From Candidatus Nealsonbacteria bacterium (GTDB lineage: Bacteria > Patescibacteriota > Minisyncoccia > Minisyncoccales > JANBVM01), in NCBI GenBank assembly GCA_026016225.1, contig CP061210.1, positions 2,000 through 65,999 on the forward strand: a stretch of DNA of 64,000 nt. Direction: 5' to 3'. The first letter of the stretch is position 1; the number at the start of each line of letters is the position of its first letter. Positions 8,457 through 64,000 of this stretch are shown piece by piece. The position numbers were made by a program, and so were the translations under genes. The notes beneath the pieces were generated by a model. The model saw nothing but the letters and a program-made list of their open reading frames with translations. It had not been told where the DNA came from and did not search any database.

Positions 8457-8465
8457 AGAGTCTAA

Positions 8466-13456: not shown

Positions 13457-14482
13457 ATGCAAATTTTAAATTTATTAGACAGAAAATGGGTTGAAAAATT
13501 CCTTCAAAACCGTTTTCACAAATATTTTCCCAAAGCAGAAAAGTTGATAGATTTTAAGATTAAGACTTTAAAAATATTTTTAGATCACCAACGAATAAGT
13601 ACCAGATACAATCTGGTTTTGTCTTATAGAAATAAAAATTTAAAAAAATCAATAATTGTTAAGGCGGAAAAAAAACCGAATTTTGATGAAGGGATTTCTA
13701 GAATAAAAACAGATTATTTAGCCAATCTCATTTTAACGAATCAAGGACTGAACTACCTTATTCCCCGTGCCTTAGAATATTATCAACCCTTGGGGGCTTT
13801 TTTTTATGAACCAATTGAAGGTACTTGTCTTAAACAACTAAGTATTGAACACCGCGGAGAGGAATTCCTAAAATTTATCCCAGAAGTTGCTACGTCTCTT
13901 AAAAAAATACATCTGGTTAAAAACCACCAACAAATAATCTTACGGAACCAAGCTTGGGAAAAAAGACAGTATAAAAACTATTTATGTTTAATGGAAAAAT
14001 ATTATCCTTTCGGTCTCGATCGTTTTAAGAAATTAATCCAATACTGTAAAAACTTTAGAATAAAAAATAAAAATGATTTCTCCGTCAAAAACTATTGTCT
14101 GACTCACGGAGATCTTCACAGCGGTAATATTTTTATAAGTAAGCGGCAAATAAGATTTTTAGATTTTTCCGAGGCTAGACTTTACGATCCCCTTAGTGAC
14201 TTAGGTTGCTTTTTTATGCATACTGAATTGATGCTTGAATATGACTTCCACGCAAACTACCAAGAAATGATTAATAAAGTCAAAAATTTATTCTATCAAA
14301 ATTATTTTACGCGCCCCCCAACCAACCCAGAGAAAAATAGGGTCTATTATTACTCGCTTCATACTCTATTCAAAATTATCGGTTATGCTGCTCTAAATGA
14401 AAACAGTGATAGGAAATTAATAGAATCGAACAAATTACTAGAAAAATTAATTAAAATTGGAGAAGAAAAAATAAATCTTTAA
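13457..14482 (+). CDS. aminoglycoside-phosphotransferase-fold kinase (possible sugar/maltose kinase)
   Basis: 341 aa. Catalytic loop LTHGDLHSGNIF and FLDFSEA (DFG-like), embedded in the glycogen gene cluster. Confidence 0.55.
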   Translation: MQILNLLDRKWVEKFLQNRFHKYFPKAEKLIDFKIKTLKIFLDHQRISTRYNLVLSYRNKNLKKSIIVKAEKKPNFDEGISRIKTDYLANLILTNQGLNYLIPRALEYYQPLGAFFYEPIEGTCLKQLSIEHRGEEFLKFIPEVATSLKKIHLVKNHQQIILRNQAWEKRQYKNYLCLMEKYYPFGLDRFKKLIQYCKNFRIKNKNDFSVKNYCLTHGDLHSGNIFISKRQIRFLDFSEARLYDPLSDLGCFFMHTELMLEYDFHANYQEMINKVKNLFYQNYFTRPPTNPEKNRVYYYSLHTLFKIIGYAALNENSDRKLIESNKLLEKLIKIGEEKINL

Positions 14483-49844: not shown

Positions 49845-50411
49845 TTATTTTTCTATATCTAAATTTCTTTGAGAAACCGTAGTCTGAATTCTTATTTTGG
49901 GAAGACCCGATGCGCCTTTCTTACCTATTTCTAAAAGCATTGTTATTCGCGGCTGAAGATTGTCTTCTTGTGTTTCTCCGGAAGGCTGGAATTTAAATTG
50001 AGTAATTTCTAAATCATCCGGGGTCAAGGGAAGACCAGCTGCTCCATCTCTTGATTCTTTAAGTTGATTATCTTCTGTATCCCAATAGAATTCCTGACAA
50101 ACAGGGGGGTCTTCGTAATTCTCAAATTTTATTCCTTTTCCTACTTTAGTAATCTCGTAATTTGTCTTAGCACTTATACAGCTACCATCTATATCTTTTC
50201 TTGCCATTCTTAAAGCGCGACTAATATATTCCACAAAATAGGAAGTATTATCAATAGTCTCCCGTAAAGCTAAAGCTCTATGTTGACTTCTTAAGGAAGA
50301 AATAAAAAAACCTGTAGGAACTGAAATTACAGTAGAGAATATGGCGACAGCTACTAAAACCTCAATTAGAGTATATCCCCATTTCTTGTTTATGGTTTCT
50401 CTATTGCTCAT
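49845..50411 (-). CDS. type IV pilin-like protein (PilW-like), prepilin N-terminal cleavage/methylation motif
   Basis: 188 aa. KKWG|YTLIEVLVAVAIFS. Confidence 0.75.
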   Translation of the reverse strand: MSNRETINKKWGYTLIEVLVAVAIFSTVISVPTGFFISSLRSQHRALALRETIDNTSYFVEYISRALRMARKDIDGSCISAKTNYEITKVGKGIKFENYEDPPVCQEFYWDTEDNQLKESRDGAAGLPLTPDDLEITQFKFQPSGETQEDNLQPRITMLLEIGKKGASGLPKIRIQTTVSQRNLDIEK

Positions 50412-50931
50412 ACCAATTTGTTATATATTCTAAAGCTGTAAAAGTATGAGTTCTACCTCTTTCTTCCCAAGTAATTTCAACTATAACTTTTCTTTTATTG
50501 GTGTCTGGATTTAGCGGATCAACCTCAGCAATTGTAATTTTTCTGATAAATTTTGTTTGAACATCGGAGACTTCATAACCATAAAAGTTATCTGTTTGAA
50601 TATATAAAGGAGTACCACTATAACTTGTCAACGTCTGACTATCATAATCAGCCTCCCACTCACCCACACCTAAATACACATCCCAACTGAGGGAAGGATT
50701 AGTTCTCTTTTCCAACCAAGTACTGTCTCTTATATTTCTGACTATTTCAATTCCTTCTTGAGCTAAATAAGAAGCAATTGCTTTTTGTTCAACTATGGAG
50801 GACGCGGAAAGGGTCTGACTCATCAAAGAAAAAGAAGCTCCCACTCCGATAGTTAAAATAAAGATTGCCGTAATTACTTCTAATATTGTAAATGCCGCAT
50901 CACTTTTAAAAATTTCTTTTATTTTTTTCAC
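50401..50931 (-). CDS. type IV pilin-like protein (PilV-like)
   Basis: 176 aa. SDAA|FTILEVITAIFILTIG. Confidence 0.75.
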   Translation of the reverse strand: MKKIKEIFKSDAAFTILEVITAIFILTIGVGASFSLMSQTLSASSIVEQKAIASYLAQEGIEIVRNIRDSTWLEKRTNPSLSWDVYLGVGEWEADYDSQTLTSYSGTPLYIQTDNFYGYEVSDVQTKFIRKITIAEVDPLNPDTNKRKVIVEITWEERGRTHTFTALEYITNWYEQ

Positions 50932-50988
50932 TTTTCTATAATGTTTTAATGTTTAGATGTTTCTATGCTTTTATGTTTAAATGAATTC

Positions 50989-51540
50989 TCAATCAATATC
51001 AATTAAACCAACATTATTTATAGTAATGGTTTTAGTTTCTGAGGAATCAGATTCCAAAGCAAGAGTAATTATTACCGAATTTATCTCCCCTCCTAATTCT
51101 TGATATTTTATCGTTATTTTTGGGTCAGGAGGTTTATAATTCACTGAAACCAAGTAAGAGGATGTATTTATATCCTCTATAACTACTCCTTCTTCTAACT
51201 CAATAGTTTCTATAATAGTATCTGATGAAGAAGTATAGAACTCATCTCCTTCTGCAGGGTCAGTATCAGCATATATGATGTATTGATTGTTTGAACTTTT
51301 ATCAAGAAAAATTCCGTAGTTAGGTGGTATTCCTCCTCCACATTCCGGACATTCTCTTGCTGACATTGCCATTTCTTGAGCCCTTCTTACGTCCTGGGCT
51401 AATTGATGAGCTGCTGTTCTGAGAGTAAATTTTTTTTGACTCTCTCTCTGGTTAACCATAACAAGTGAAGTCATGGTAACGACAATAAAAACAACAGTTA
51501 AAATTTCAAGCAATGTAAACCCCGCACTACTTTTACTCAT
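50989..51540 (-). CDS. type IV pilin-like protein (GspH/FimT-like)
   Basis: 183 aa. SSAG|FTLLEILTVVFIVV, then AAHQLAQDVRRAQEMA. Confidence 0.75.
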   Translation of the reverse strand: MSKSSAGFTLLEILTVVFIVVTMTSLVMVNQRESQKKFTLRTAAHQLAQDVRRAQEMAMSARECPECGGGIPPNYGIFLDKSSNNQYIIYADTDPAEGDEFYTSSSDTIIETIELEEGVVIEDINTSSYLVSVNYKPPDPKITIKYQELGGEINSVIITLALESDSSETKTITINNVGLIDID

Positions 51541-51573
51541 ATTGGAAATTAGTTATTAGAAATTTGAAAATGG

Positions 51574-52986
51574 TTAAGGAGACACCTCTTTCCACTCAGG
51601 TAGGCCAGCTTCAACTCCAAGCTGATAAGAAACAGTATTTGTTCTATTAGCAGTATCTTGAATTTGTAAGGCAACCGTGCCTGAATTTCCATCAACCGCT
51701 GTAAAAGTAGATGATGCGTTCTGAGAAGAACTGGTAGGAGGTTCACCGTCTTCAAAAGTCCAACTCCAGCTAACAATTGGGCTTCCTCCGTCAGAAGGGG
51801 AAGAGCCATCTTTAAAATAAACCATTTCTCCCTCAGAAACCCCGAAACCTTCACAAGGAATCCAGGGTCCCACATCTTTTAAAGAACACTCAAAATCAGC
51901 AATAGCATCTAGTAAGATAGTAAAGTTTTTTGTAGTTGAATCCCAGCCTCCGACACTGTCTCTGACGTAAACCTCAACCGTAGAAGAGGTTGTAGTACTA
52001 AGGCCTGAGGGAGTAAAATCACATTTATAACCACAAGAGTCGTCAGGGTCAACTCCCCAATCATAAATATCCCATTCTGTTTTAATAATATCACCGTCTC
52101 CCTCCGGGTCAGTAGATTCATTAACGAATTTAAATGGACATCCTGTATAACCTGTACATTGGCCTAAAGGAAGACCGCACCCGGTCGGGTTGCAGGAAAT
52201 ACCGGCGGTAGGAGGATTGTTAATTTCAATAGTATAGGTATATGAATTATCAGGGCCTTCAGAACGATTATCAGCTGAATCCCAATTAGCGACGGTTAAG
52301 ACTGTAGTAATCGTAAAGGTGAAAGGAGAAGTGTATTTGGGGGAGGAGGGACTTGGAGGATTGCCGTCTGTAGTGTATCTAAGCGTTGCTCCCTCTTCTC
52401 CAGAAGAACAACTAACATCAACTGAGTTAATATAAGTGCCTGTTCCGGGAGAACAAGTAGGTTTTGGAGGTCTAATCATATCTTTAGTTACCTTAATTGG
52501 CGCGAATCCTGACTCTGTTTCTGTTATCTCATTTTCTGCATTATCAAGAACATGAAGACCATACCACCAGATGCCATCTGAAGGTGAATCATCAGCAGAG
52601 CTTGACCAGGAATCAGAACCTTCAGGAGCGGGATGGGTACTGACTAAACTCCATGTGCCGGGTACACCAGCATTATCAGGAGCGCGCCAGACTTCTACTT
52701 TCCAAAGATGAGAACCGCCCGTATCAGAAACTGTCCAGGAAATGGTAGTCTCATCCGGACCAGCAATATTAAGCAGGGTAGGAGAAACATCAAAAGCATC
52801 AATAGAGGGGAAATCGCTATCTATAAAATAAACTGTAACTTTAGTGTAATCTGTGTTTAATGCAGCCTCAACTATAACACTCCCTATTAAAACTGATGTA
52901 AGAAAAACCATCAAAGTCTGAACAATCTTCCAGCATTGTCTATGTTTATAAAAGGCTTTTTTCAATTTTCTTTTTAAGTTCTTCAT
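51574..52986 (-). CDS. membrane-anchored surface protein with Fn3/chitobiase-C-like and PKD-like domains
   Basis: 470 aa. N-terminal TM. ATLRYTTDGNPPSPSSPKYTSPFTF resembles the chitobiase/hexosaminidase C-terminal motif. Two PKD-like segments (FVNESTDPEGDGDIIKTEWD, SWSWTFEDGEP). Confidence 0.7.
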   Translation of the reverse strand: MKNLKRKLKKAFYKHRQCWKIVQTLMVFLTSVLIGSVIVEAALNTDYTKVTVYFIDSDFPSIDAFDVSPTLLNIAGPDETTISWTVSDTGGSHLWKVEVWRAPDNAGVPGTWSLVSTHPAPEGSDSWSSSADDSPSDGIWWYGLHVLDNAENEITETESGFAPIKVTKDMIRPPKPTCSPGTGTYINSVDVSCSSGEEGATLRYTTDGNPPSPSSPKYTSPFTFTITTVLTVANWDSADNRSEGPDNSYTYTIEINNPPTAGISCNPTGCGLPLGQCTGYTGCPFKFVNESTDPEGDGDIIKTEWDIYDWGVDPDDSCGYKCDFTPSGLSTTTSSTVEVYVRDSVGGWDSTTKNFTILLDAIADFECSLKDVGPWIPCEGFGVSEGEMVYFKDGSSPSDGGSPIVSWSWTFEDGEPPTSSSQNASSTFTAVDGNSGTVALQIQDTANRTNTVSYQLGVEAGLPEWKEVSP

Positions 52987-52988
52987 TT

Positions 52989-53032
52989 TTAATTACGAAG
53001 TAATTACAGAGAGCGAAGCGACCGGTTTGCTT
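52989..53032 (-). repeat. GCGAAGC-hairpin repeat family, copy D
   Basis: Plus strand: TTAATTACGAAGTAATTACAGAGAGCGAAGCGACCGGTTTGCTT. Fills the spacer between the 609-aa and 470-aa genes. Confidence 0.6.
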
Positions 53033-53066
53033 AAATTTTAGATATACGATGTCCAAAATTCCCAGC

Positions 53067-54878
53067 TTACCACAGGCATACACATAGACGCCAATAGAAG
53101 CCCCCGGGCCCTGCACTGCAATCCTGGTTATATGAACTTCCTCTATAGCGGCAGCGATTCGCATCTCCCAAAGCATTCGCCCACATAGGAGAGACAATAC
53201 CATTACCAGGAGTACTACTAGGGTCACAGCCAGCAGATGTGTCAAAAAGGTTTTTACAAACGGTGCAGCTACTATTATCATCCCATTGTTTATCTATACA
53301 TCCACCATAACTAGAGCAAACATCACCACAACCGTAGCCACCTACGTCATTTCTATCCCTATGCCAGCAAGCATTGCCTCCTTGTCCGGCGCAGCCGCTG
53401 CAGCCGTCGCTATATAGATAGCCATTACAAGTACGGCAAGTACCACTAACACATCTTTTAGCACTACCTGCACAATCGTAGTTATTAGCTCCCCAATTAG
53501 TAGTCTTATAAACATTACATAACCCAGAACCATTACATGTTTTACAAGTAAAACTACAACCCTTAGATGTAGTCTGACTGCACGAAGTTCCAACCTTGTA
53601 TTCTGTTGTATTAACAACATAACCTGCTGATGCGTTCCATACACCAGCGAGTTGCATACCATAAGGTAGTGAAAGATTACCAATACAAGATGAACCACCA
53701 GAAGTACAACCCCTGTACCATTTTTCAGCTGAACAATCCCTCTCTGCGCATTGTATAGTTATATCACAATATAGGCTTGAGCTTGGATTAATTTCACCCC
53801 CACCACTACAAACCCTGCCTGCTGTTGATAGGTAAGACCAGCTATCTCCAACATCTTCAGAACAAGTATGAGCAGAACTGCACCTGTATTTATCCCTCCC
53901 TTTTTGACAAGCCCCACTACATTTATAAAAGGCAGAATATCCACATATAGTTGTTCCGGTAGTTCCACAACTTGAAGTTAAGGTATAGCTCGCACCAGCA
54001 TAAACATTTTCTGAATAAGCATCTACATGGTCTGCAGCTGCCCTACAGCTTCCTGATCCATTACAGGAAGTCCACCATTTAGTAGCTGAACAATCTCCAT
54101 CATCACAATCCTCATCATAATTACAATAATTGGAAGAAGAAACTGCAGTTTGTTCCCCGGAATCACTACGGACATAACCTGAAGGTATATGGGTACAGCC
54201 CGGGGGGTAATAAGTACCCCTGTCAGCCACTTTATGACAGGTAGCATCACAGGCATCACCCTGTTCAAACTTCTGAACCAGATATCTGAGATGACCGCTC
54301 CCATCAATATAATTTGAAAAATTGGCAGTAGTAGTGGTATAGGTCAGAGTGCAATCGGAAGGACCTGGACAGCTATTATTTAAGCTGGAAGCAACTAACT
54401 CCCATGCAGTAGTATTGACATTATATAAATACATTCTTAAGTCATTATCTTCGAGGCTTTCAATGTTTTGTCCGGCATAACCCTCCCAGTAAAGCTCTAT
54501 TGAATTAATATCAACTGGATTTTCATTAATAGTAATTACAAAATCATGCACAACCTCTTTAAAAACCTCAGTGGTATCGCTGATGATTTCATGAACATCG
54601 TTTGCTGATTCAATGTTAGTGTAAGAAGCGAGCTCAACACCAGGCTCTGCCCAAGTGGAACGATTGACAGCCACCGGGATATCATTAGCATAACCTTTAC
54701 CATAATAACCCCATTTATTTATTCCTGCCCCTGAAGAAAAATCATAAACCTCAATCAATGAAGTTGCATACACTTTCTGGGTTAATATAACCGTACTTAC
54801 TCCAACCAAAACAAAAATTATTATTTCTATCAAAGAAACAACTATTTTTTTCTTATTAAATTTTATGTCTTTATACAT
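53067..54878 (-). CDS. very Cys-rich secreted/pilin-like protein (candidate tip adhesin or maturation substrate)
   Basis: Start placed at ATG 54878 (GGAGA lies 9 nt upstream); the track start 54896 is TTG. N-terminus KKKIVVSLIEIIIFVLVG is pilin-like but lacks Gly(-1). About 44 Cys by my count in the last ~440 aa. Duplicated module CxxxDCSA(T/E)KW(W/Y)xxCxxxGSxC. Confidence 0.75.
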   Translation of the reverse strand: MYKDIKFNKKKIVVSLIEIIIFVLVGVSTVILTQKVYATSLIEVYDFSSGAGINKWGYYGKGYANDIPVAVNRSTWAEPGVELASYTNIESANDVHEIISDTTEVFKEVVHDFVITINENPVDINSIELYWEGYAGQNIESLEDNDLRMYLYNVNTTAWELVASSLNNSCPGPSDCTLTYTTTTANFSNYIDGSGHLRYLVQKFEQGDACDATCHKVADRGTYYPPGCTHIPSGYVRSDSGEQTAVSSSNYCNYDEDCDDGDCSATKWWTSCNGSGSCRAAADHVDAYSENVYAGASYTLTSSCGTTGTTICGYSAFYKCSGACQKGRDKYRCSSAHTCSEDVGDSWSYLSTAGRVCSGGGEINPSSSLYCDITIQCAERDCSAEKWYRGCTSGGSSCIGNLSLPYGMQLAGVWNASAGYVVNTTEYKVGTSCSQTTSKGCSFTCKTCNGSGLCNVYKTTNWGANNYDCAGSAKRCVSGTCRTCNGYLYSDGCSGCAGQGGNACWHRDRNDVGGYGCGDVCSSYGGCIDKQWDDNSSCTVCKNLFDTSAGCDPSSTPGNGIVSPMWANALGDANRCRYRGSSYNQDCSAGPGGFYWRLCVCLW

Positions 54879-54903
54879 AACTATGCTTCTCCGCAATTAA
54901 GAG

Positions 54904-54947
54904 GAAACCAGTCGCTTCGCTCCTTGTAATTGCTTCGCAATTAAGAA
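54904..54947 (+). repeat. GCGAAGC-hairpin repeat family, copy B
   Basis: GAAACCAGTCGCTTCGCTCCTTGTAATTGCTTCGCAATTAAGAA, inverted relative to copy D across the Cys-rich gene. Confidence 0.6.
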
Positions 54948-55018
54948 AGAGTTATTAGTCTATTTTACCATATTTAGAATTTCAAAAAAATAGAGAGGAC
55001 CGAACAACTGAAGGCAAA

Positions 55019-55498
55019 CTATTGAATATTCATTTGAATACCTAACATTCTCGTCATCTTTATACTGGTAAATGTATCCTCACTTAAAATATTACTATTA
55101 GACTCTTTAATTGCTATAACTACCGGCGCTCCTATCTCAAAATCCTCTATCGTTGCCGGAGTCTCTTTTTTGGTTTCGGGCTTGTAAAAAACAAATTCTG
55201 TTTCTTTGTCTGTCAGCACCGTTACTTCCTTAGTAAAAGAAAGCTCATCCAGAAAAATTTTATTAATATCTACTTCTATCTTGAATTTTCCTTCTGGCGG
55301 ATTTATTTCTACACTTGTTATAATTCCTTCAATTAAATATCTCGGATATGTTGGGTCTAATTGGTAGCTTGTTTCTGACGGAGTTTCGGTTTGAGTCTCT
55401 GGTTTTATATAACGATAATATACAAAAAGAGCACAGCCGATTAAAACAACAATTACAATAATTGAAACTAAAACCATCCACGAGCTTTTTATTTCCAT
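55019..55498 (-). CDS. hypothetical N-terminally membrane-anchored protein
   Basis: 159 aa. TM WMVLVSIIVIVVLIGCALFVYY followed by a T/E/P linker and a small beta-rich domain. Confidence 0.55.
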   Translation of the reverse strand: MEIKSSWMVLVSIIVIVVLIGCALFVYYRYIKPETQTETPSETSYQLDPTYPRYLIEGIITSVEINPPEGKFKIEVDINKIFLDELSFTKEVTVLTDKETEFVFYKPETKKETPATIEDFEIGAPVVIAIKESNSNILSEDTFTSIKMTRMLGIQMNIQ

Positions 55499-55550
55499 AC
55501 TTTTTAAATCTTTTATCTATATTTTAGAGATGAACTTTGTCTTCTTTATT

Positions 55551-56708
55551 TTATAATTTGTAGGTTAAAAAATCAATAAAAGAACTCTGGGTTACAATAG
55601 AAATAACGACCGATAAAAGCATAAAAGGAGCAAAAGAGAACGTCTTGTAGGTTTTTACCTTTAATTGAGGTTTTTGAATAAATAAATCCTTGATGGTTTT
55701 AACCTGGTTTTCGTTTAATCCAGCAGCATCTATCTCTCCAAAGTTATTTTCCATTTTCTTCTCTTTAAGCATTTGTAATATTAAAGGTAATTCATTCTTA
55801 GAAATCACTGCTCCCTTTTTAAGTTCTCTAACTTTTATTTTTTTAACTTCTTTCTCTTCTATATAAAAATTTAAAAATTGACGAAATAAGGTGATTAAAA
55901 CCATAAAAATCAAGGTTTGTTTCAAGATAGACTTCAATATTTCAATTTTACCAAAAAAAAGCAAATAGGAACAGTATATTAGTACCGTTCCGTTGATAAA
56001 ATAACCAATCCATTTTTTCTTTTCTCTAACTTTAGAAAGATAACCCAAAATAAGAAGCAAAAAGAGAAAAAGAAAAAGAGGGTTAAATAAAAATCTCCCT
56101 CCCGGAATATTTTTTTTAAAAGAACTTATCCCTTGAAGAAAAATGAATATAAGAACATAACTTAAAAATAGTGGAAAGAACTTTTTACCCAGATTTTTTA
56201 ATTTAGGGAATAATTTTTTAATATCTAATTTTCCAATATTCTTTAATCGAGCTCTATGGTTATACGTTTCCTTTATTCCTTTAAAAAAAGCAGTAGCCGT
56301 TAAAACTAAAAGTAGGGGAACAAAAAGGTTAATTAGAAGATTAAAAGAGGGAAAGTACGACAAATAACTTTTTGAATAAAACTTTAAAGGCAGCAAGAAA
56401 GAACAAAGAGCAAAAAACTTCGCGTCTCCGGCAGACCACAGTTTTAAATGCCATAGAAGATATCCTACTAAAAAAGCGAGCAGGGCGTTTATACCTACTT
56501 TTATTAAATATTGAATATTTGATATTTGGAAAAGGAAAAAGAAATTATAGAAAAAAAGAAAAATATAAAACAAAATCCCGCAAAAAAATCCTGTAGCAAT
56601 CCATTTATTGAAAATCTTTCCATATCTAATATCGGTATAAGAACAAATTCCTCCAATAATAAAAAGAGGAGCTAAAAGGGCAAAATCAAAGAAAAGTGAT
56701 GTAAACAT
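55551..56708 (-). CDS. A24-family aspartic peptidase-like (prepilin peptidase / TadV-FlaK type) with ~230-aa C-terminal extension
   Basis: 385 aa, polytopic. First Asp motif CSYTDIRYGKIFNKW; second WSAGDAKFFAL (GxGD(V/A)K-like). No methyltransferase domain. 2-nt gap to the upstream radical SAM gene. Confidence 0.65.
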   Translation of the reverse strand: MFTSLFFDFALLAPLFIIGGICSYTDIRYGKIFNKWIATGFFCGILFYIFLFFYNFFFLFQISNIQYLIKVGINALLAFLVGYLLWHLKLWSAGDAKFFALCSFLLPLKFYSKSYLSYFPSFNLLINLFVPLLLVLTATAFFKGIKETYNHRARLKNIGKLDIKKLFPKLKNLGKKFFPLFLSYVLIFIFLQGISSFKKNIPGGRFLFNPLFLFLFLLLILGYLSKVREKKKWIGYFINGTVLIYCSYLLFFGKIEILKSILKQTLIFMVLITLFRQFLNFYIEEKEVKKIKVRELKKGAVISKNELPLILQMLKEKKMENNFGEIDAAGLNENQVKTIKDLFIQKPQLKVKTYKTFSFAPFMLLSVVISIVTQSSFIDFLTYKL

Positions 56709-56710
56709 AA

Positions 56711-57634
56711 TTACAAAATATCTACAATTGGATGACAGATATTATTGCCAATCTTAAACTTTAAATCTGTCTTAACGGGCTTAAATTCTCTATTTCCAAT
56801 AATTTCCAGATAATCCTTATGAATCCCACAGCAATATTTTTTATAAAGACAACTATCACAATTAGGTAAATAAGTTACCTCGTCTCTTCTCTGGGTTATC
56901 CAGGTATATTTCCATAATTCAGGCGTAAGCGTGCATAAAGGAAAATGATAAAGACGTAACTCATTAAATTTATCATTCCACTCTTTTACTATAGAACTGA
57001 CTTTTTCTTTTACCTGGGTATAAGTAATGCCTATTATTTTATAGTTCTTTCCGCACACCCCTTCTGGTTCCGGGAAAATTATAATTACCCTATTCACTGA
57101 AGGAAAATCATTAAAAATTAAATTAAGAATCTCTCCTACTAATTTATAATTTTGCTTAATGAAAATTATTCGGAGCTCTAACTCTTGAAATCTTTTTCTG
57201 TATTTTAAAATATTATGAATACCCTTTATTGTTTGTTCAAAACTACCTTTAGTCCTCGTAATGGCGTCGTGGAGTTGATTATTATGGCCTAAAATAGCTA
57301 TTTCAACAGCAAGGTTATCTATTTTAAGAAAACTTTTTACAAACCGTGGATAACTAAACATTCTTCCATTGGTTGCTAAAACTAGTCTATTCTTGGGGAA
57401 ATTTCTTCTAAACCAATAACACAATTCTAAAAAACGCGGATGAGTAGTTGGCTCACCGCCCGTAAAATTAATGTTTTCTTGACTCTTACTCCAAAGATTG
57501 AGATTGCGTCGAGCTCTCACAGTTATTCTTTTAAAAGAATAATCTTCTGAAATCTCCTTACTCTGAAAATCAACCGGATTAGTGCACATTATGCAATTAT
57601 TATTGCATCTATTCCAAATACAAATATCGGGCAT
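56711..57634 (-). CDS. radical SAM enzyme with C-terminal auxiliary Cys motif, paralogue 5
   Basis: 307 aa. CNNNCIMC, FTGGEPTT, and the C-terminus CDSCLYKKYCCG-x12-EFKP. Confidence 0.85.
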   Translation of the reverse strand: MPDICIWNRCNNNCIMCTNPVDFQSKEISEDYSFKRITVRARRNLNLWSKSQENINFTGGEPTTHPRFLELCYWFRRNFPKNRLVLATNGRMFSYPRFVKSFLKIDNLAVEIAILGHNNQLHDAITRTKGSFEQTIKGIHNILKYRKRFQELELRIIFIKQNYKLVGEILNLIFNDFPSVNRVIIIFPEPEGVCGKNYKIIGITYTQVKEKVSSIVKEWNDKFNELRLYHFPLCTLTPELWKYTWITQRRDEVTYLPNCDSCLYKKYCCGIHKDYLEIIGNREFKPVKTDLKFKIGNNICHPIVDIL

Positions 57635-57637
57635 ATT

Positions 57638-57841
57638 CTAAGAAATGTCAAAATGAACATTATCACTATTTTTCCATTCTGCAATTTTAGCTTCAGCTAC
57701 CCTGTAATATTTTGCTTCTTTTAATAATTCTTTCTGAGCTTTCTTTTTAGCTTCTTCCATAGAAGATGCAGACACCCAACCCAGTACCTCATAATGTTCC
57801 TGGCTCCTATAAGTTACGATATATTCTTTTTTTTGTTTCAT
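57638..57841 (-). CDS. small hypothetical protein (67 aa) heading the rSAM5-peptidase sub-operon
   Basis: MKQKKEYIVTYRSQEHYEVLGWVSASSMEEAKKKAQKELL...AKIAEWKNSDNVHFDIS. Lies 3 nt upstream of the radical SAM gene, and a 121-nt gap with a TGGTATTAT -10-like box lies upstream of it. Confidence 0.55.
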   Translation of the reverse strand: MKQKKEYIVTYRSQEHYEVLGWVSASSMEEAKKKAQKELLKEAKYYRVAEAKIAEWKNSDNVHFDIS

Positions 57842-57962
57842 TATAAATCTCGCTAATTTAAATTTTTACTAATCGACCTATGATTTTTTACACTATATAA
57901 TACCATTAACTGCACAATCCATAAACCTGGCTACCACACTCTTTTCTTATCCTTAAGTTCTT

Positions 57963-59363
57963 TTATAACCCCCTCTTAAATGAGCTAATTAAATACAATA
58001 ATCCTTCACGAATATCCATTTTCAGTTCATACAAACTTTTTAAACTAAAGATTCTTTTAATAATATAAGAAGGACGTAAATAAAATCTTCTTATGGCTTT
58101 ATTCCTTAATTCCCACAACTTTTTTCGGGAAAGTTCTTCTGTCTCTATAGCCGGATAGGTACGAGAGGAATCACTACACTTTAAAGTATTATCAATAAGC
58201 CATCCTTTTGAAATTGCATTTTTTCGCAAATCTGTTCCTATACGAGGAGCGGCTATGTTAAAAGTGACGAAATCACAATTTAATTCTACCGCAAACTTTA
58301 AGGTATTTAAAATTGCCTCTTCGTCCTCACCTGGTAATCCAAGAATAAAATGGGCCATAGTTCTAATACCTAATTTTTGACAAAGAGAAAACATTTTTCT
58401 CACCTGATTCAATGTAAATTGCTTATTATAACAATCTAATGTTCCTTGGTTTCCACTTTCTACTCCAAGTTGAATAATATGGCAGCCACTTTTCTTCATA
58501 ATTTCTAACAGCTCCTCATCTAAAACGTCTACCCGACTAGAACAAGACCAGCTAAAATTAAAATTATTAAGGAGCATCTTGCGACATATATCTAAAGCTT
58601 GATTTCTGTTAGCACCAAAAGTGTTATCTCTAAAGCGAACCTCTTTTATTCCTAAAGAATAAATATATTTTAATTCCTCAATAACATTGTCAGCATCCCG
58701 CCATTTAAATTCTAAACTATTGTAAATACAAAAGCGACAATGATAAGGACAATGTAAGCTGGCGACTACAGTGGCAAAGGGAAAATGCCGAGCAATAGGA
58801 AAATCATACTTAGCCATAGGAAATAAATCTAAACGAGGTAGAGGAAGCGAAAAGATTTTATTTTTTTTCGTTATTTTTTTCGGAATAACAATTTGCTCTC
58901 TGTCTCTATAAATTATATTTTTAAAAAGACCTTTCCCTGCTGACAAGAATTTTAATATTTCTGAATCTGTAAAATCTAAAATTAGGGCATCTAAAAATTT
59001 ATTTTCTCTCAGTATTTTCTCGCCCTGAAAAAGAAATAAATCACCTGTTCCGATTAATTTAATTTGTTTTACCCGCTTAATCTTCTTTAGAAATTCCTTA
59101 TCCTTTTCCCAGGAAACTGCCCCAGAAAGAAAAATAATTGTGTCTATATCCATTGAGGATATTTTTTTGCAACATTCATCAAATTTAATTCTATCAGCGA
59201 TAGCATCAATTACCTTTATTTGATAATCAGAAGAAAGAATACCACTAAGTACGGTAAGGTCTACAGGATGCCAGACAAAATCTCCTTCGGAGATAAAACT
59301 ACAATAATAATCTCTTAAATAAATTTCATCGCCAGGTAAATTTAAAAGCAGTATTTTTTTCAT
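57963..59363 (-). CDS. class B (B12-binding domain) radical SAM enzyme
   Basis: 466 aa. N-terminal Rossmann-like B12-binding-type domain, CPYHCRFC triad and QLGVESG. Confidence 0.85.
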   Translation of the reverse strand: MKKILLLNLPGDEIYLRDYYCSFISEGDFVWHPVDLTVLSGILSSDYQIKVIDAIADRIKFDECCKKISSMDIDTIIFLSGAVSWEKDKEFLKKIKRVKQIKLIGTGDLFLFQGEKILRENKFLDALILDFTDSEILKFLSAGKGLFKNIIYRDREQIVIPKKITKKNKIFSLPLPRLDLFPMAKYDFPIARHFPFATVVASLHCPYHCRFCIYNSLEFKWRDADNVIEELKYIYSLGIKEVRFRDNTFGANRNQALDICRKMLLNNFNFSWSCSSRVDVLDEELLEIMKKSGCHIIQLGVESGNQGTLDCYNKQFTLNQVRKMFSLCQKLGIRTMAHFILGLPGEDEEAILNTLKFAVELNCDFVTFNIAAPRIGTDLRKNAISKGWLIDNTLKCSDSSRTYPAIETEELSRKKLWELRNKAIRRFYLRPSYIIKRIFSLKSLYELKMDIREGLLYLISSFKRGL

Positions 59364-60034
59364 AATTTCTTCTTAAACAGAAATATCAGATTTTTAATAC
59401 CGTCTAAAAACATATTCAATTTTGACTCCCCTCCTATTCTTTTACGGTAAGAGCCTAAAATTTCTTTAGCTTTAAATTTTTGAAAGGCTTCAATTTTAAT
59501 TTCTTCTGAAAAAGACATCCCATCAGATACTAAGTTCAACCCATCCAAAATATTTTTCCTGAATATCCACATTCCACTTTGCGAATCTTTTAAGCGTAAT
59601 TTGAATAACAGATTGGTAAAAAGGGTTAAGAATATATTACCTATTAGATTTAATTTATTTATTGCTTTTTTCCCTAAGCAACTAAACCTATTAACAGAAA
59701 TAAAATCAAGATTTTCTTTTTCTAAAATCTCTAACAATTTTGGAATTTTCTCTGCAGGATAAGTTCCATCACCATCCATTGTGATAATAACTTCGCCTTT
59801 TGCTTTTTTAAATCCAGCCTTGTATTGTCTACCATAGCCTCTTTCCGCAATTATTACTTTAGCGCCGGCTTCCCGGGCTATCTTTATTGTTTTATCCTTA
59901 CTCCCGCCATCAACAACAATAATTTTCACTTTATGAATCTTATCTTTTAACAAAAAGGATAGGTCTCCCAGTGTTTTTTGAATTCCTTTCTCCTCATTAA
60001 GAGTTGGTATAATTATATCAATATACATTATCAA
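59360..60034 (-). CDS. family 2 glycosyltransferase (polyprenol-phosphate sugar transferase-like)
   Basis: 224 aa. IIIPTLNEE, VVDGGSKDKT and ITMDGDGTYP (DxD). ATGA overlap with the B12-rSAM gene. Confidence 0.85.
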   Translation of the reverse strand: MIMYIDIIIPTLNEEKGIQKTLGDLSFLLKDKIHKVKIIVVDGGSKDKTIKIAREAGAKVIIAERGYGRQYKAGFKKAKGEVIITMDGDGTYPAEKIPKLLEILEKENLDFISVNRFSCLGKKAINKLNLIGNIFLTLFTNLLFKLRLKDSQSGMWIFRKNILDGLNLVSDGMSFSEEIKIEAFQKFKAKEILGSYRKRIGGESKLNMFLDGIKNLIFLFKKKL

Positions 60035-60086
60035 ATTACGAAAACATTAACGATATTAAAAGAAGAAGGTATTAAGAAAATCTATT

Positions 60087-60974
60087 TTAATAAGGTTGTT
60101 TAATAATTGGTTTTATTTCGCTAGTATCATAAATTTGACAATATTCTTTTCTAATTCCCTTACAGGTTGGATGGTAAAAACATTCTTCACAGTTAGGGAA
60201 TATAAACTGAGACTTCAGAATTTCAGGAGAAGTAAACAACTTATTTCCTATAGAGAGATTCACTCTCTCGGGATTAGCAGGAGGAGCAAGAGAATCTTTA
60301 AATTCTTCTCCTAATACACATAGTGGAATTTCATTTATTCTTATATTTAGACTAGGGTTTTCTTTTATTATTTCTCGAATGGTTGGCACGGCTTCCTTAT
60401 ATTGAGGAACAAATTCTTTATATCTATCCATGACGTTTCTTCCATCTATAAATCTATATTGAATTTTCACTACCCCTATACCCTTTAACAGTTTGACTAA
60501 TTCCTTCAAATAAGGAAGGTTCATCTTCATAACCACCGTGTTAATTGTCAAATCCTGTTTATTTCTTACTAAATTTTTAATCCCCTTCACTACTTGATAA
60601 AAACCATCTGACCTGCAATATGTTCTGTAAAGACCTGGGTTGGAAAAGTGTAAAGAAACAAGGAAAGATATGAATTGAAATTCCTTTAGCTTTTTAACCA
60701 GCGTTTCATAAGATAGCATCCTGCCGTTTGTCTGGATCTCTATTGCCTTAATTCCCTTTTGTTTGGCAAAAGCCAATAAATCAAAAAGGTGCTTTGAGAT
60801 TAGAGGTTCTCCCCCAGATATAATTAATTTTTTACATCCAACATTTGCGCTGTCAACTATCTGTCTTTTTAAATCCTCTACTGGAAACTCTTTATAATAA
60901 CGCTTTTCTTTGTTAAGACAAAAAATGCAGGAATTATTACAAGCATAACCAACTTTTATATCAAGCTCTTTCAT
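60087..60974 (-). CDS. radical SAM enzyme with C-terminal auxiliary Cys motif, paralogue 4
   Basis: Track ORF extends to 61055, which would overlap the upstream gene by 65 nt. Likely start is MKELDIKVGYACNNSCIFC. Has ISGGEPLI and CEECFYHPTCKG-x12-EIKP. Confidence 0.8.
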   Translation of the reverse strand: MKELDIKVGYACNNSCIFCLNKEKRYYKEFPVEDLKRQIVDSANVGCKKLIISGGEPLISKHLFDLLAFAKQKGIKAIEIQTNGRMLSYETLVKKLKEFQFISFLVSLHFSNPGLYRTYCRSDGFYQVVKGIKNLVRNKQDLTINTVVMKMNLPYLKELVKLLKGIGVVKIQYRFIDGRNVMDRYKEFVPQYKEAVPTIREIIKENPSLNIRINEIPLCVLGEEFKDSLAPPANPERVNLSIGNKLFTSPEILKSQFIFPNCEECFYHPTCKGIRKEYCQIYDTSEIKPIIKQPY

Positions 60975-60990
60975 ACATATAAAAAGTTCA

Positions 60991-61911
60991 TCAAAAAAGT
61001 GGCTTAAGGTCCCCCGAGCCAAACCTGTCAATATCATTAACAAAAAATCCATCACAGAAAGGAGAGGCCTTACAGTTCTCGCACATCTTAATCTTTTTCT
61101 TTAATCTATAAGAAGGCATGTCTTTTATTGAGGTTCTCTCGGATGAAGGCGGCTGACAGTATTTTCCTAAATTCGGAGGAAGACAGGTATTATTTATTGA
61201 TTTACTAATAAAACCAAAAACGCAATAAGGAATCTCGGTAAATAAAACCTTGTAATTCATTCTTGAAGCTTGGTGGTAGACTTTCCTTACGTAAGGAGTC
61301 AAGTCTTTAAAAGGAAGGTAATAAGAATAATCATTATCTGTAATACAGGGCACAGAAAAAGTCATGTTCCTTATATTCAATTTACTTTCCACCAAATCCA
61401 TTAAATCTAAAAGGTTATCTTTGTTCTGCTGGAGTATTAAAGAACTTATTTGGATTTTTATATCTGGTGCTTTCTTTAATACTCCTTTAATTCCCCTTAA
61501 GGTACGGGTAAAACTACCTGGTGTTTGAGTAACTGCGTCATGAATTTCTGAATTAGAGCCATACAGAGGTATCCTCAGTTTATCAATGCCCGACTTAACA
61601 AATTTCTCTAAAAACTGTTTGTCAGACAATCTTACTCCATTGGTTGCCATCTGAATAAATTCAAAACCACTTTTTTTGATATATTCTATCACTTGAATTA
61701 TCTCCTCGTATTCTAATGGATCACTACCTGAAATTATAATTTTTTTAATTCCTTGTTCCTTAAAATCTACTAAATTTCTATAACAATCAATAAGTTGATG
61801 TTTAATTTCAGACTCACTTTTTTTAAAGTGACCACCGCAAAAAACACAAGAATTACTACACCCAGGATTTAAAATTATGCCTCCGTATTCTTTTTTTCTC
61901 CCATTGATCAT
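60991..61911 (-). CDS. radical SAM enzyme with C-terminal auxiliary Cys motif, paralogue 3
   Basis: 306 aa. CSNSCVFC, ISGSDPLE and CENCKASPFCDG-x12-DLKP. Confidence 0.85.
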   Translation of the reverse strand: MINGRKKEYGGIILNPGCSNSCVFCGGHFKKSESEIKHQLIDCYRNLVDFKEQGIKKIIISGSDPLEYEEIIQVIEYIKKSGFEFIQMATNGVRLSDKQFLEKFVKSGIDKLRIPLYGSNSEIHDAVTQTPGSFTRTLRGIKGVLKKAPDIKIQISSLILQQNKDNLLDLMDLVESKLNIRNMTFSVPCITDNDYSYYLPFKDLTPYVRKVYHQASRMNYKVLFTEIPYCVFGFISKSINNTCLPPNLGKYCQPPSSERTSIKDMPSYRLKKKIKMCENCKASPFCDGFFVNDIDRFGSGDLKPLF

Positions 61912-61932
61912 ATTTTGCTTATAAATAAGATT

Positions 61933-62934
61933 TTAATAAGAAGATAAAATCTTCAATTGTTTAATGCTTAAATCTTTAACCGGTCTCAATTCTTTATCTC
62001 CGTAGCGTTGAAGGTATATTTTCCAGATACCCTCACATTTATCATATAATTTACAACCTTTACATTTCTTTGTTTTCATTCTTCCAATCACCCGCCGGTT
62101 CTCCTCAACGTCAGGACTGTAGAAATCAGGTGCAACATGCTCTGTACGAAAGGTTGCAACCTCCTGCAGTTCGCTAATCTGGTCTAAATAATCTTGGAAA
62201 TAACAAAGGGGAACATAACGAACATGCCAGTGTTGGAGATGAGCACGCTTCCCTATATCTAAACATTTATGGACATAGTCTGCTATCTCTGAAATTCGAG
62301 GCACCAATTCAGCAAAATAATCACAGGCTGCCCCTTCGTTGCAATCTACAAAAATAAATTCGCTATCATCAATTCCTAATCTTCTAATATATTCACCGAT
62401 TCGAGGAAGAAACCTATAGTTTTGTTTAACAATGGTGGTGTTAGAACCAATATGAATATTTAACCCTAATTTTTTAGAAATCTTTTGAACATTCTTTACG
62501 CCTTGTTTGAGCTGATTAAAACTTCCCGGGACCCGAGTTAGCCAATCATGTAGTTTCGGTGTATGGCCATGAATAGAAAAGACAAGACTATTTAAGCCGG
62601 CCTTGAGTATAGACTCTGCCAGGTCAGGATAGGAATACATTCTTCCATTGGAAGACATCATAATTGTAGAAAAACCCAAGTCTTTAGCAAATTTTATCAA
62701 TCTTACAATATCAGTCCTAATAGTCATTTCTCCGCCGATTAGCTCTAAGTAGTCCGACCCTCTTTTACGTGCGTCAGTCATCTCTTGTTGTACCTGCAAG
62801 GTTGTTCTAACAGGAAGGTTTCTTTTATTAGCTTCCATACAAAAGCGACAGCGATTATTGCAGCGATAGCCTGTAAAAATAACTGTTTTTTTAATCTTTT
62901 TCCAGGGCATATAAAAAGGTGGCAATTTTATCAA
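61933..62934 (-). CDS. radical SAM enzyme with C-terminal auxiliary Cys motif, paralogue 2
   Basis: 333 aa. CNNRCRFC, LIGGEMTI and CKGCKLYDKCEG-x12-ELRP. Confidence 0.85.
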   Translation of the reverse strand: MIKLPPFYMPWKKIKKTVIFTGYRCNNRCRFCMEANKRNLPVRTTLQVQQEMTDARKRGSDYLELIGGEMTIRTDIVRLIKFAKDLGFSTIMMSSNGRMYSYPDLAESILKAGLNSLVFSIHGHTPKLHDWLTRVPGSFNQLKQGVKNVQKISKKLGLNIHIGSNTTIVKQNYRFLPRIGEYIRRLGIDDSEFIFVDCNEGAACDYFAELVPRISEIADYVHKCLDIGKRAHLQHWHVRYVPLCYFQDYLDQISELQEVATFRTEHVAPDFYSPDVEENRRVIGRMKTKKCKGCKLYDKCEGIWKIYLQRYGDKELRPVKDLSIKQLKILSSY

Positions 62935-62964
62935 TTTCTACTTTAAGATAAAAAATGTTTTTGT

Positions 62965-63927
62965 CTATTTCACCGGTTTTAATTCTCCAAGACCAAATAC
63001 TTTAGCATAATTTTTCCAAACCCCATAACAGTAAGGATTATATTTACATTCCTTACACCTTTTGGACTTTACTTTCTTTTTCCTTCTGTTTTCATCTACA
63101 GAACATTCAAAATCAGGACCGCGAAGATAGGTATCAGATTGAAATATATCATTAATTGACTCCTCATAGTCGGGAAGTAAACAGGGAACCATATTATAAA
63201 CATAACAAGGAACCTTCTTTAATCCAATTCTTAGTGCTTCTCTAAAATAGGGAGCAACCACACTCATTTTGGCCACAATAGCTTCTGGATTTTTAAGCAC
63301 ATTCCCTTCGATAGTAGCATAAATAAGTCGAAATTCTTTAACGTCTAATTTGAGTAAAAATTTTATCAATTCTGGGAGATGGAGGTAGTTTAACTTTAAA
63401 ATAACTATGTTTATCTTAACTACTTGTTTTAACTCTTTTAAATTCTTTAAACCTTGAAGTGTCTGTTTGTAGGCTCCCCTAACACCCATTATTTTATCGT
63501 GAACACTCTCAAAAGGGGAATAAAAAGAAACCACAAAAATATTTACACCAGCCCGAATCAACTCCTCGCAGTAACCCTTATAATAAAACAATCTGCCATT
63601 TGACTGTATCTCAATATTGGGAATTCTTTTCTTGGCATACTTAACAAGCTTAATTAAATCTTTTCTCAGGGTCGGCTCACCGCCAGAAAAAGCAAACGTA
63701 TGCGCCTTAGCATGCACCGCTATATCAATGTCTTTTTTAATCTCTTTAAAGGGTTTTAAACCTCTATTTTCATCCATGTTACTCCTCTCAATCGCATTAG
63801 CTACCGAACACATAATACAATTACAATTACATCTAAAGATGCAAAGGCTTTCTACCTTGCCATAACTTCTTTGATCCAGGGGTCTGGTATCTTTATCTTT
63901 TTTTGACTTTTTAACAAATTTTGGCAT
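62965..63927 (-). CDS. radical SAM enzyme with C-terminal auxiliary Cys motif, paralogue 1
   Basis: 320 aa. CNCNCIMC, FSGGEPTL and CKECKYNPYCYG-x12-ELKP. Confidence 0.85.
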   Translation of the reverse strand: MPKFVKKSKKDKDTRPLDQRSYGKVESLCIFRCNCNCIMCSVANAIERSNMDENRGLKPFKEIKKDIDIAVHAKAHTFAFSGGEPTLRKDLIKLVKYAKKRIPNIEIQSNGRLFYYKGYCEELIRAGVNIFVVSFYSPFESVHDKIMGVRGAYKQTLQGLKNLKELKQVVKINIVILKLNYLHLPELIKFLLKLDVKEFRLIYATIEGNVLKNPEAIVAKMSVVAPYFREALRIGLKKVPCYVYNMVPCLLPDYEESINDIFQSDTYLRGPDFECSVDENRRKKKVKSKRCKECKYNPYCYGVWKNYAKVFGLGELKPVK

Positions 63928-64000
63928 TTATATAACTTAAATCTTTAAAGTTATCTTATAAACCTTAATTCTGTTTACATCAAAAAGATGCTCTTTTTCC

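Follow-up and report, generated by a model that had tools for sequence, protein, structure and literature searches.

An array of HxsC-like radical SAM genes in Candidatus Nealsonbacteria is probably the maturase half of an expanded His-Xaa-Ser system

The closest described relative of the genes discussed here is the canonical His-Xaa-Ser (HXS) system, which comprises four genes, arranged as HxsD-HxsB-HxsC-HxsA, and is reported to be 99.7% Pseudomonadota. Work of 2026 showed that it matures a periplasmic effector carrying His-x-Ser (HxS) repeats, with cleavage and a +8 Da change, and that this effector blocks the entry of phage DNA (PMC13128918). HxsA is processed at its N-terminus in an HxsBCD-dependent manner, and a C-terminal C-x2-C pair of E. 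coli HxsC (C342/C345) has been assigned to a second 4Fe-4S site that is required for full activity (PMC13128918). We have analyzed a 64,000-nucleotide (nt) stretch of a Candidatus Nealsonbacteria genome (contig CP061210.1, positions 2,000 to 65,999; hereafter the window) that contains a tandem array of genes for radical S-adenosylmethionine (SAM) enzymes. Comparison with related loci indicates that this region probably constitutes the maturase half of an enlarged HXS system, one of HxsA4 type. The existence of NCBIfam models for HxsA3, HxsA4, HxsC4 and HxsD-like proteins means that variant Hxs systems are already known to the curators of that collection. Neither these variants nor comparable radical SAM arrays in the Candidate Phyla Radiation (CPR) or DPANN were the subject of any paper found in a literature search. 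Suites of radical SAM genes do occur beside nitrogenase paralogs in Elusimicrobia, in a different gene context that is not linked to the system in the window.

The array lies on the minus strand, within a co-directional run that continues without interruption from 55.0 to 64.0 kb (Table 1). A first-pass annotation, made from the letters of the window, had described five co-directional radical SAM paralogs, a further radical SAM enzyme (HpnJ-like, see below), a family 2 glycosyltransferase (GT2) and a 67-amino acid (aa) open reading frame (ORF). A check of the ORFs and their Pfam matches found each of these where it had been placed. We call the paralogs P1 to P5, a sixth that lies beyond the end of the window P6, and the 67-aa ORF S67. 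P1-P5 all pass the Pfam Radical_SAM model, with 55.8-82.8 bits against a cutoff of 29.5. They align with 22-33% identity to P1, with no gaps through the C-terminal motif, and CxxxCxxC, a GGE-type strand, G82, N110-G111, P248-C249, C291, C294, C300, G302 and P318 are invariant. The C-terminal signature reported in the first-pass annotation, C-x2-C-x5-C-x-G-x12-(E/D)(L/I/F)(K/R), is indeed present with exact spacing in all five. The spacers of the array (30, 21, 16, 52, 121, 3 and 2 nt) and the ATGA overlap that joins the GT2 gene to the next, HpnJ-like gene (59360/59363) are also as first described.

The array extends past 63927 and is cut by the end of the window. The translation of 63938-64000 ends with EKEHLFDVNRIKVYKITLKI and a stop codon, and is identical to that of a gene at 821-2479 of a 3.6 kb Logan contig (L001) that is 100% identical in sequence. 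This gene encodes a PMT_2-family protein (Pfam PMT_2 36.4 bits, cutoff 26.1), and upstream of it on the same contig is P6, which has the same C-terminal signature. At the other end, recurrence in related loci places two further genes in the conserved unit. These encode a predicted peptidase of the A24 family and a 159-aa protein, X159. Homologs of X159 with 24-53% identity follow the A24 gene in L002, L004, L006-L008, L010, L011, L019, L023, L024 and L061 (locus numbers refer to our collection of related loci).

We compared the proteins with NCBIfam, where the Hxs models include TIGR03976-TIGR03978, HxsA4 (NF038313), HxsA3 (NF038309), HxsC4 (NF038332) and HxsD-like (NF038315). The best match of all five paralogs is either HxsC (TIGR03977) or HxsC4, in every case below the cutoff. 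HxsC ranks first or second for all five, and HxsC4 is best for P2 and P4. The match of P5 to TIGR03977 has a score of 174.7 bits (cutoff 267.9) and covers profile positions 31-289 of 292, and the other paralogs score 72-115 bits. The HxsC4 cutoff of 500 bits is reached neither by P2 (164.9) nor by its orthologs from four phyla (119-146). On these scores (119-165 bits) the P2 orthologs form a separate, unnamed clade. The possibility that the paralogs belong to a known cofactor family, which the first-pass annotation had raised against its own reading, is not borne out. Models of MoaA, PqqE, NirJ, AhbD and similar families align to the radical SAM core alone, with 30-93 bits against cutoffs of 231-650; for MoaA the range is 30-85 bits (cutoffs 231-325), and for PqqE 34-61 bits (cutoff 381). 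A PADLOC scan, using a release without an HXS model, gave generic radical SAM core matches to pVip alone.

It had been suggested that the C-terminal cysteines form an auxiliary iron-sulfur (Fe-S) site as in SPASM or twitch enzymes. A second Cys-cluster site is supported, with four invariant C-terminal Cys residues, and the conserved C-x2-C corresponds to the second-cluster pair that was mutated in E. coli HxsC (PMC13128918). The SPASM or twitch identity is confirmed by no hidden Markov model (HMM), and none of the five paralogs matches SPASM (PF13186) at E<=0.1. An AlphaFold2 (AF2) model of P2 has a predicted local distance difference test score (pLDDT) of 88.6. The nearest solved folds are BlsE, GDGT-MAS, SkfB, viperin, SuiB and MoaA, with template modeling (TM) scores of 0.5-0.66 and 13-21% identity; the twitch enzymes BlsE and SkfB are near at TM about 0.6. 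These neighbors fit a radical SAM barrel followed by a C-terminal auxiliary-cluster region, and do not of themselves identify a substrate. The same architecture, a barrel with a Cys-rich C-terminal region, is shared with SkfB, SuiB, anSME and BlsE as the nearest solved folds. The paralogs differ from these in having no SPASM HMM match, in their low similarity (10-21% identity, TM 0.5-0.66) and in the Cys spacing of the HxsC lineage.

When one genome for each GTDB species was scanned with the P2 alignment, 79 loci were obtained, with P2 identities of 47-78%. Counts given below are taken over 82 loci unless stated otherwise. The hosts are Patescibacteria of many classes, Omnitrophota, Elusimicrobiota, metagenome-assembled genomes (MAGs) labeled as Planctomycetes, and DPANN Woesearchaeota. 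Many records have titles with an implausible taxonomy. Thus L012, L021, L033, L045, L049 and L076 come under MAG titles such as Bacillales, Pseudomonadales, Bdellovibrionales, Gammaproteobacteria, Planctomycetia and Methanosarcinales; their loci look like those of Patescibacteria or DPANN, and the labels are unreliable. P2 has hundreds of homologs at 60-82% identity, and its orthologs are 50-82% identical from Patescibacteria to DPANN archaea. The P2 orthogroup is found in 66 loci. All 47 loci with complete flanks have an ortholog of P5, in most cases immediately downstream of P2. Genes of P6 type occur in 34 loci, the A24 peptidase in 55 and S67 in 26. The HxsC-like proteins of these loci, 332 in total with 3-9 per locus, fall into 52 orthogroups. 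P1 is found in 11 loci and P3 in 3, and P4 is a singleton.

The five-gene array had been expected to be conserved as a unit. In that form it is not, since the closest complete genomes, L085 (82% P2 identity) and L006 (77%), differ from the window in both the content and the order of their paralogs. What is kept is the core P6 ... P2-(S67)-P5-A24. An exhaustive phmmer search from P2 gave 580 cluster representatives at E<=1e-30, and many of the best matches are proteins of 600-1390 aa with 2-4 HxsC-like domains; such fusions include L027:6223-8145, L085:4567-7539 and P0168-P0188. Because many relatives fuse 2-4 of these domains, the paralogs are likely to work together. The proposals that the genes make up a multi-enzyme radical SAM maturation system, and that the paralogs most probably act on one substrate, are supported.

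The related loci contain the remaining components of an HXS system. Of the 82 loci, 29 have His-x-Ser-dense ORFs in a six-frame scan, 28 have HxsB-like radical SAM/SPASM genes and 24 have HxsD-like genes. Scores above the curated cutoff are given by HxsB in L083 (408.9 bits against 370), by HxsD in L007 (62.6 against 50), and by HxsA4 in both L006 (55.2 against 55) and L083 (82.4). The core is found together with HxsA, HxsB and HxsD in four phyla. The nearest relatives (L006, L007 and L085) have HxsD-HxsB-HxsA directly upstream of a P6-(PMT_2)-P1-P2 array. The order in L007 is PilD, HxsD, a small HxsD-like gene, HxsB, HxsA, radical SAM/SPASM, P6, P1, P2, S67, P5, A24 and X159. L006 has this backbone with the insertion of PMT_2, GT2, the HpnJ-like enzyme, P3 and one further paralog. 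In DPANN the operon order is A24, HxsD, small, HxsB, HxsA. By synteny with these relatives, the HxsA, HxsB and HxsD genes of the Nealsonbacteria genome would lie upstream of window position 64000. We note that a second small protein, of 67-80 aa with the motif (E/D)EF(C/A)N(Y/F)(V/T)L and unrelated to S67, is encoded between HxsD and HxsB (L007:3614-3820, L011:1354-1557, L069:14664-14867 and L080:16141-16383); by eye it resembles a short protein of HxsD type.

The statement in the first-pass annotation that no characterized pathway has this composition is thus not supported, given that the paralogs are HxsC-like and that HxsB, HxsD and repeat proteins of the HxsA4 type are present above cutoff in related loci. 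Genetic work has moreover characterized the canonical HXS system (PMC13128918). Among the substrates that had been listed, i.e. peptide, protein, glycan or lipid, a protein is the most likely.

The repeat proteins lead back to the same arrays. We performed a reciprocal search with a leader motif derived from a 5-sequence subset of 16 leaders, the full set being too diverse. In the 59 metagenome loci that it gave, HxS repeats are present in 54, HxsB is adjacent in 47 and HxsD is found in 38. HxsC-like genes follow downstream wherever the contig goes on, and the first of these is a P6 ortholog in at least nine. The precursor leader is Lys-rich, with the consensus (I/L)PxIKKxIxxFLTSEEGKISKK and invariant P7, K10, K11, F16, E20, G22 and K26, and is common to bacteria and archaea. 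After the leader come a single hydrophobic helix and from 4-55 HxS units, with a median of 17 and with G > S > T, A as x. The tail ends in W, Y or F, or in CRGGWCNPRC, and some Patescibacteria have an extra domain of about 330 aa. A homology search with the HxsA of L006 found no cluster tied to the contig of the window. HxS-repeat genes are often found at contig ends or with runs of N (L002, L007, L016, L019, L027, L035, L041 and many of L088-L146). Because repeats break short-read assemblies, the lack of an HxS-repeat gene at a given locus is weak evidence.

The gene directly after P5 encodes a protein that scores 25.4 bits against Pfam Peptidase_A24 (PF01478), just under the cutoff of 26.5. 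As in PilD and FlaK (MEROPS A24) both catalytic Asp motifs are kept, and D26 and A-G-D95-A-K-(L/F)-F are invariant in 52 homologs. The archaeal homologs pass the Arc_PepC domain. Unlike PilD and FlaK, the window peptidase has no A24_N_bact domain and ends in a long C-terminal extension. A canonical PilD with A24_N_bact is encoded separately in relatives, and so by sequence the A24 peptidase is distinct from the housekeeping prepilin peptidase. In a Woesearchaeota locus (L080:16833-19496, minus strand) Peptidase_A24, Arc_PepC and PMT_2 are contained in one 887-aa protein beside HxsD-HxsB-HxsA, which ties the peptidase and the glycosyltransferase of fold C (GT-C) to one pathway. The HxS-repeat precursor has a charged leader, an invariant Gly and then a hydrophobic helix. 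Since these are the features of an A24-type substrate, as in the proteins cut by PilD and FlaK, the peptidase would be expected to remove the leader. The precursor differs from prepilins in that its invariant Gly lies 5-8 residues ahead of the helix, not at the helix edge.

The presence of an A24 family member could also mean that the array and peptidase together modify and process the type IV pilins encoded just downstream, where there are pilin-like genes with N_methyl motifs (49845-51540). Type IV pilus genes also flank the cluster in L004, L087 and L007. We consider this explanation very improbable, because prepilin-like N-termini are found in just 12 of 81 loci, and other loci go on with pyruvate:ferredoxin oxidoreductase or unrelated genes. 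The canonical PilD of the relatives also argues against it, as does the position of the DPANN peptidase inside the HxsD-HxsB-HxsA operon.

S67 ends 3 nt upstream of P5. A small ORF in this position, kept in 26 loci, might be the precursor of a ribosomally synthesized and post-translationally modified peptide (RiPP) made by P5 and the other paralogs, but its properties make that scarcely credible. Homologs of S67 are 50-76% identical, and the mean column identity of 70% is even along the full length. It lacks repeats, a core rich in Cys or His, and any division into leader and core. The AF2 model is a compact beta-beta-alpha-beta domain (pLDDT 85), and S67 is absent from most loci that retain P2-P5. 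A fold search gave no significant match in the PDB. S67 was also considered as an analog of HxsD, itself a small protein with the motif LLNDYxLRE, and this was ruled out by an hhalign probability of 0.1%. From the model and its conservation, S67 is probably an accessory partner of P5 and not a precursor. In L006, the nearest relative in GTDB, the S67 gene is present twice in the array (12115-12357 and 13502-13732). The 121-nt spacer ahead of S67 (57842-57962) is the sole long gap of the window array, and the P2-S67 gap is short in relatives. A scan of 54800-64000 for promoters and terminators gave a site count not above that of shuffled sequence, and is uninformative on this spacer.

Three genes of the array suggest a role in glycosylation. 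The assignment of GT2 made in the first-pass annotation is confirmed by Pfam Glycos_transf_2 (93.3 bits); the best NCBIfam matches are AglJ (125 bits, cutoff 325) and dolichyl-phosphate hexose transferase (102 bits, cutoff 375). The HpnJ-like protein had been described as a B12-binding class B radical SAM enzyme. It matches HpnJ over residues 30-458 with 194.8 bits (cutoff 577.6), and is also similar below threshold to PhpK, AprD4 and BchE. This sub-threshold, full-length similarity points to a class B-like architecture; the B12-binding part of the description is not supported by Pfam, as there is no PF02310 match at E<=0.1. The genes for GT2 and the HpnJ-like enzyme occur next to each other, frequently accompanied by PMT_2, in L006, L009, L020, L026, L042 and L051. 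Because the module is absent from most loci it is, on gene content, optional. The two genes that had been counted as part of the system are present in the window, but only a minority of the loci have these add-ons.

Polyprenyl-phosphate sugars are the donors of PMT_2 enzymes, which work at the outer side of the membrane, and HpnJ and AprD4 act on sugar moieties. Taken with the matches of GT2, this suggests that Ser-rich repeats might be O-glycosylated after export with a tailored hexose. The arrangement resembles the polyprenyl-phosphate-mannose synthase plus Pmt O-mannosylation of actinobacteria and eukaryotes, in which a GT2 of the dolichyl-phosphate-hexose synthase type is likewise paired with a PMT_2 GT-C enzyme; the probable acceptor, as there, is a Ser-rich exported protein. 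It differs in that an HpnJ-like radical SAM enzyme is interposed, and in that the module is optional.

Several observations weigh against assignment to an HXS system. The window proteins all score below the curated cutoffs of the Hxs models in NCBIfam. No HxsA-, HxsB- or HxsD-like ORF is present in the whole 64-kb window, at the end of which the array runs off. HxsA is found within 10 kb in about a third of the related loci, a figure that is a lower bound as the arrays fill the flanks. The Elusimicrobiota loci have no A24 peptidase. P2 is 50% identical between bacteria and archaea, which is unusually high for a maturase with a protein substrate, and small-molecule and lipid enzymes are among the nearest solved folds of P2. 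Identity of at least 50% across domains of life is typical of metabolic enzymes, and the fold neighbors include BlsE (a sugar decarboxylase), GDGT-MAS (lipid), viperin and MoaA. With GT2, the HpnJ-like enzyme and PMT_2 sitting within the array, and HxsA lacking from the window, the paralogs might tailor a small molecule, glycan or lipid, such as a polyprenyl-linked sugar or envelope glycolipid. The three glycosylation-type genes would then be central, and the HxS protein merely a frequent neighbor. This we regard as unlikely. Those three genes occur in a minority of loci whereas P2 and P5 are universal, and by family the paralogs match HxsC and HxsC4 best, rather than a cofactor or sugar enzyme. 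The fold matches are remote, and the peptide maturases SkfB and SuiB are among them too. Finally, HxsA, HxsB and HxsD accompany the core in four phyla, and the leader-based reciprocal search recovers the same arrays.

For an HXS system of the HxsA4 type we propose the following pathway. The substrate would be a ribosomal precursor with a Lys-rich leader, a hydrophobic helix, 4-55 His-x-Ser repeats and an aromatic or Cys-rich tail. Its gene, with the leader FLTSEEGKISKK, is expected upstream, beyond window position 64000. The precursor would be recognized in the cytoplasm by HxsB, HxsD and the set of HxsC-like enzymes. Each of the latter is predicted to contain two Fe-S sites, i.e. the CxxxCxxC SAM cluster and a C-terminal P-x-C ... 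C-x2-C-x5-C-x-G site. P1-P6 would each perform radical chemistry on the repeats, with P2, P5 and P6 as a universal core, P1, P3 and P4 as lineage-specific extras, and S67 as a small partner of P5. At the membrane the A24-type intramembrane aspartyl peptidase would remove or trim the leader. GT2 as polyprenyl-phosphate-hexose synthase, the HpnJ-like enzyme for tailoring of the sugar, and PMT_2 might then O-glycosylate the exported, Ser-rich repeats. The end product would be a His-rich repeat protein of the envelope or surface.

The likeness to canonical HXS lies in the radical SAM enzymes of HxsC lineage with a second C-terminal Cys cluster, and in the HxsB, HxsD and His-x-Ser repeat substrate of loci related to the window. 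The E. coli substrate is N-terminally processed and exported, and we propose the same for the variant. There are clear differences. In place of four genes, the variant has 3-9 HxsC-like paralogs per locus or fused, multi-domain forms, together with a dedicated A24 peptidase, S67 and, as an option, glycosylation genes. Canonical HxsA has five repeats and a peptidoglycan-binding domain, whereas the variant precursors combine a distinct leader and a hydrophobic helix with 4-55 repeats; precursors of related loci pass the cutoff of the HxsA4 model. The variant is found in Patescibacteria, DPANN, Omnitrophota and Elusimicrobiota, and the window proteins fall under the Hxs cutoffs.

In some Nealsonbacteria an estimated 17-20 kb of the genome (about 0.66 Mb), or roughly 2-3%, belongs to the cluster, which would be a large investment for minimal cells. 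That share suggests a relevance to the envelope biology or phage defense of ultra-small symbionts. The variant is common, at identities of at least 50%, to Patescibacteria, Omnitrophota, Elusimicrobiota and DPANN archaea, and the assignment would provide a substrate prediction for hundreds of genes now annotated simply as 'radical SAM protein'. The block of phage DNA entry by canonical HXS was shown recently. Its radical chemistry has yet to be solved, and could be easier to detect in precursors that have dozens of repeats. A more speculative extension, which we hold with little confidence, is that the HxS-repeat proteins of CPR and DPANN are pilin-like surface proteins anchored in the membrane. 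They would be cut by the A24 peptidase, rewritten by up to ten radical SAM enzymes and O-glycosylated with a radical SAM-tailored sugar. The resulting His-rich envelope polymer might be a barrier to the entry of phage DNA, or a DNA- or metal-binding surface for episymbiosis.

Table 1. Genes of the array and its continuation, in window coordinates.
Feature	Position	Strand	Remarks
PMT_2-family GT-C membrane glycosyltransferase (552 aa)	63938..64000	-	last 20 codons and stop; remainder past window end
P1, HxsC-like radical SAM, 320 aa	62965..63927	-	HxsC 115 bits, HxsC4 103 bits, both below cutoff
P2, HxsC-like radical SAM, 333 aa (NCBI: 325 aa), core	61933..62934	-	HxsC4 164.9 bits, cutoff 500
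P3, HxsC-like radical SAM, 306 aa, rare accessory orthogroup	60991..61911	-	
P4, HxsC-like radical SAM, 295 aa counted from ATG	60087..60974	-	singleton orthogroup among sampled loci
GT2, predicted polyprenyl-phosphate-hexose synthase type, 224 aa, optional	59360..60034	-	Pfam Glycos_transf_2
HpnJ/PhpK/AprD4-like radical SAM enzyme, 466 aa, optional	57963..59363	-	HpnJ similarity below cutoff
S67, small conserved protein, predicted to be folded	57638..57841	-	between P2-type and P5-type genes
P5, HxsC-like radical SAM, 307 aa, core	56711..57634	-	closest to HxsC
Predicted A24-family polytopic aspartyl peptidase, 385 aa	55551..56708	-	2 nt downstream of P5
X159, 159-aa protein, N-terminal membrane anchor	55019..55498	-	after A24 peptidase in many Patescibacteria loci

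For P4, the longest ORF begins with GTG at 61055, which would make it overlap P3. Immediately downstream of the cluster, on the minus strand at 49845-54896, are genes for a 609-aa Cys-rich protein without a Pfam match, for a protein of 470 aa that contains CHB_HEX_C_1 and PKD domains, and for the three type IV pilin-like proteins with N_methyl motifs (49845-51540). This block also follows the cluster in L085, where the counterpart of the 609-aa protein is flagged as AF_1625_C.

Some related arrays contain additional genes. A SufS-family cysteine desulfurase (282 bits, cutoff 475) is present in the L083 cluster (7235-8734) and at 16 other loci, which are labeled Elusimicrobiota where inspected. 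The desulfurase loci that were inspected have three HxsB-like genes, at least one of which lacks CxxxCxxC (a 415-aa family, L068:12827-14074). Proteins of 290-330 aa with a weak match to DUF483, absent from the window, are encoded inside about 20 arrays (e.g. L031:3258-4253, L008:4905-5816 and L087:6691-7554). Both of the representatives inspected, those of L031 and L008, contain the motif YP(E/K)CC.

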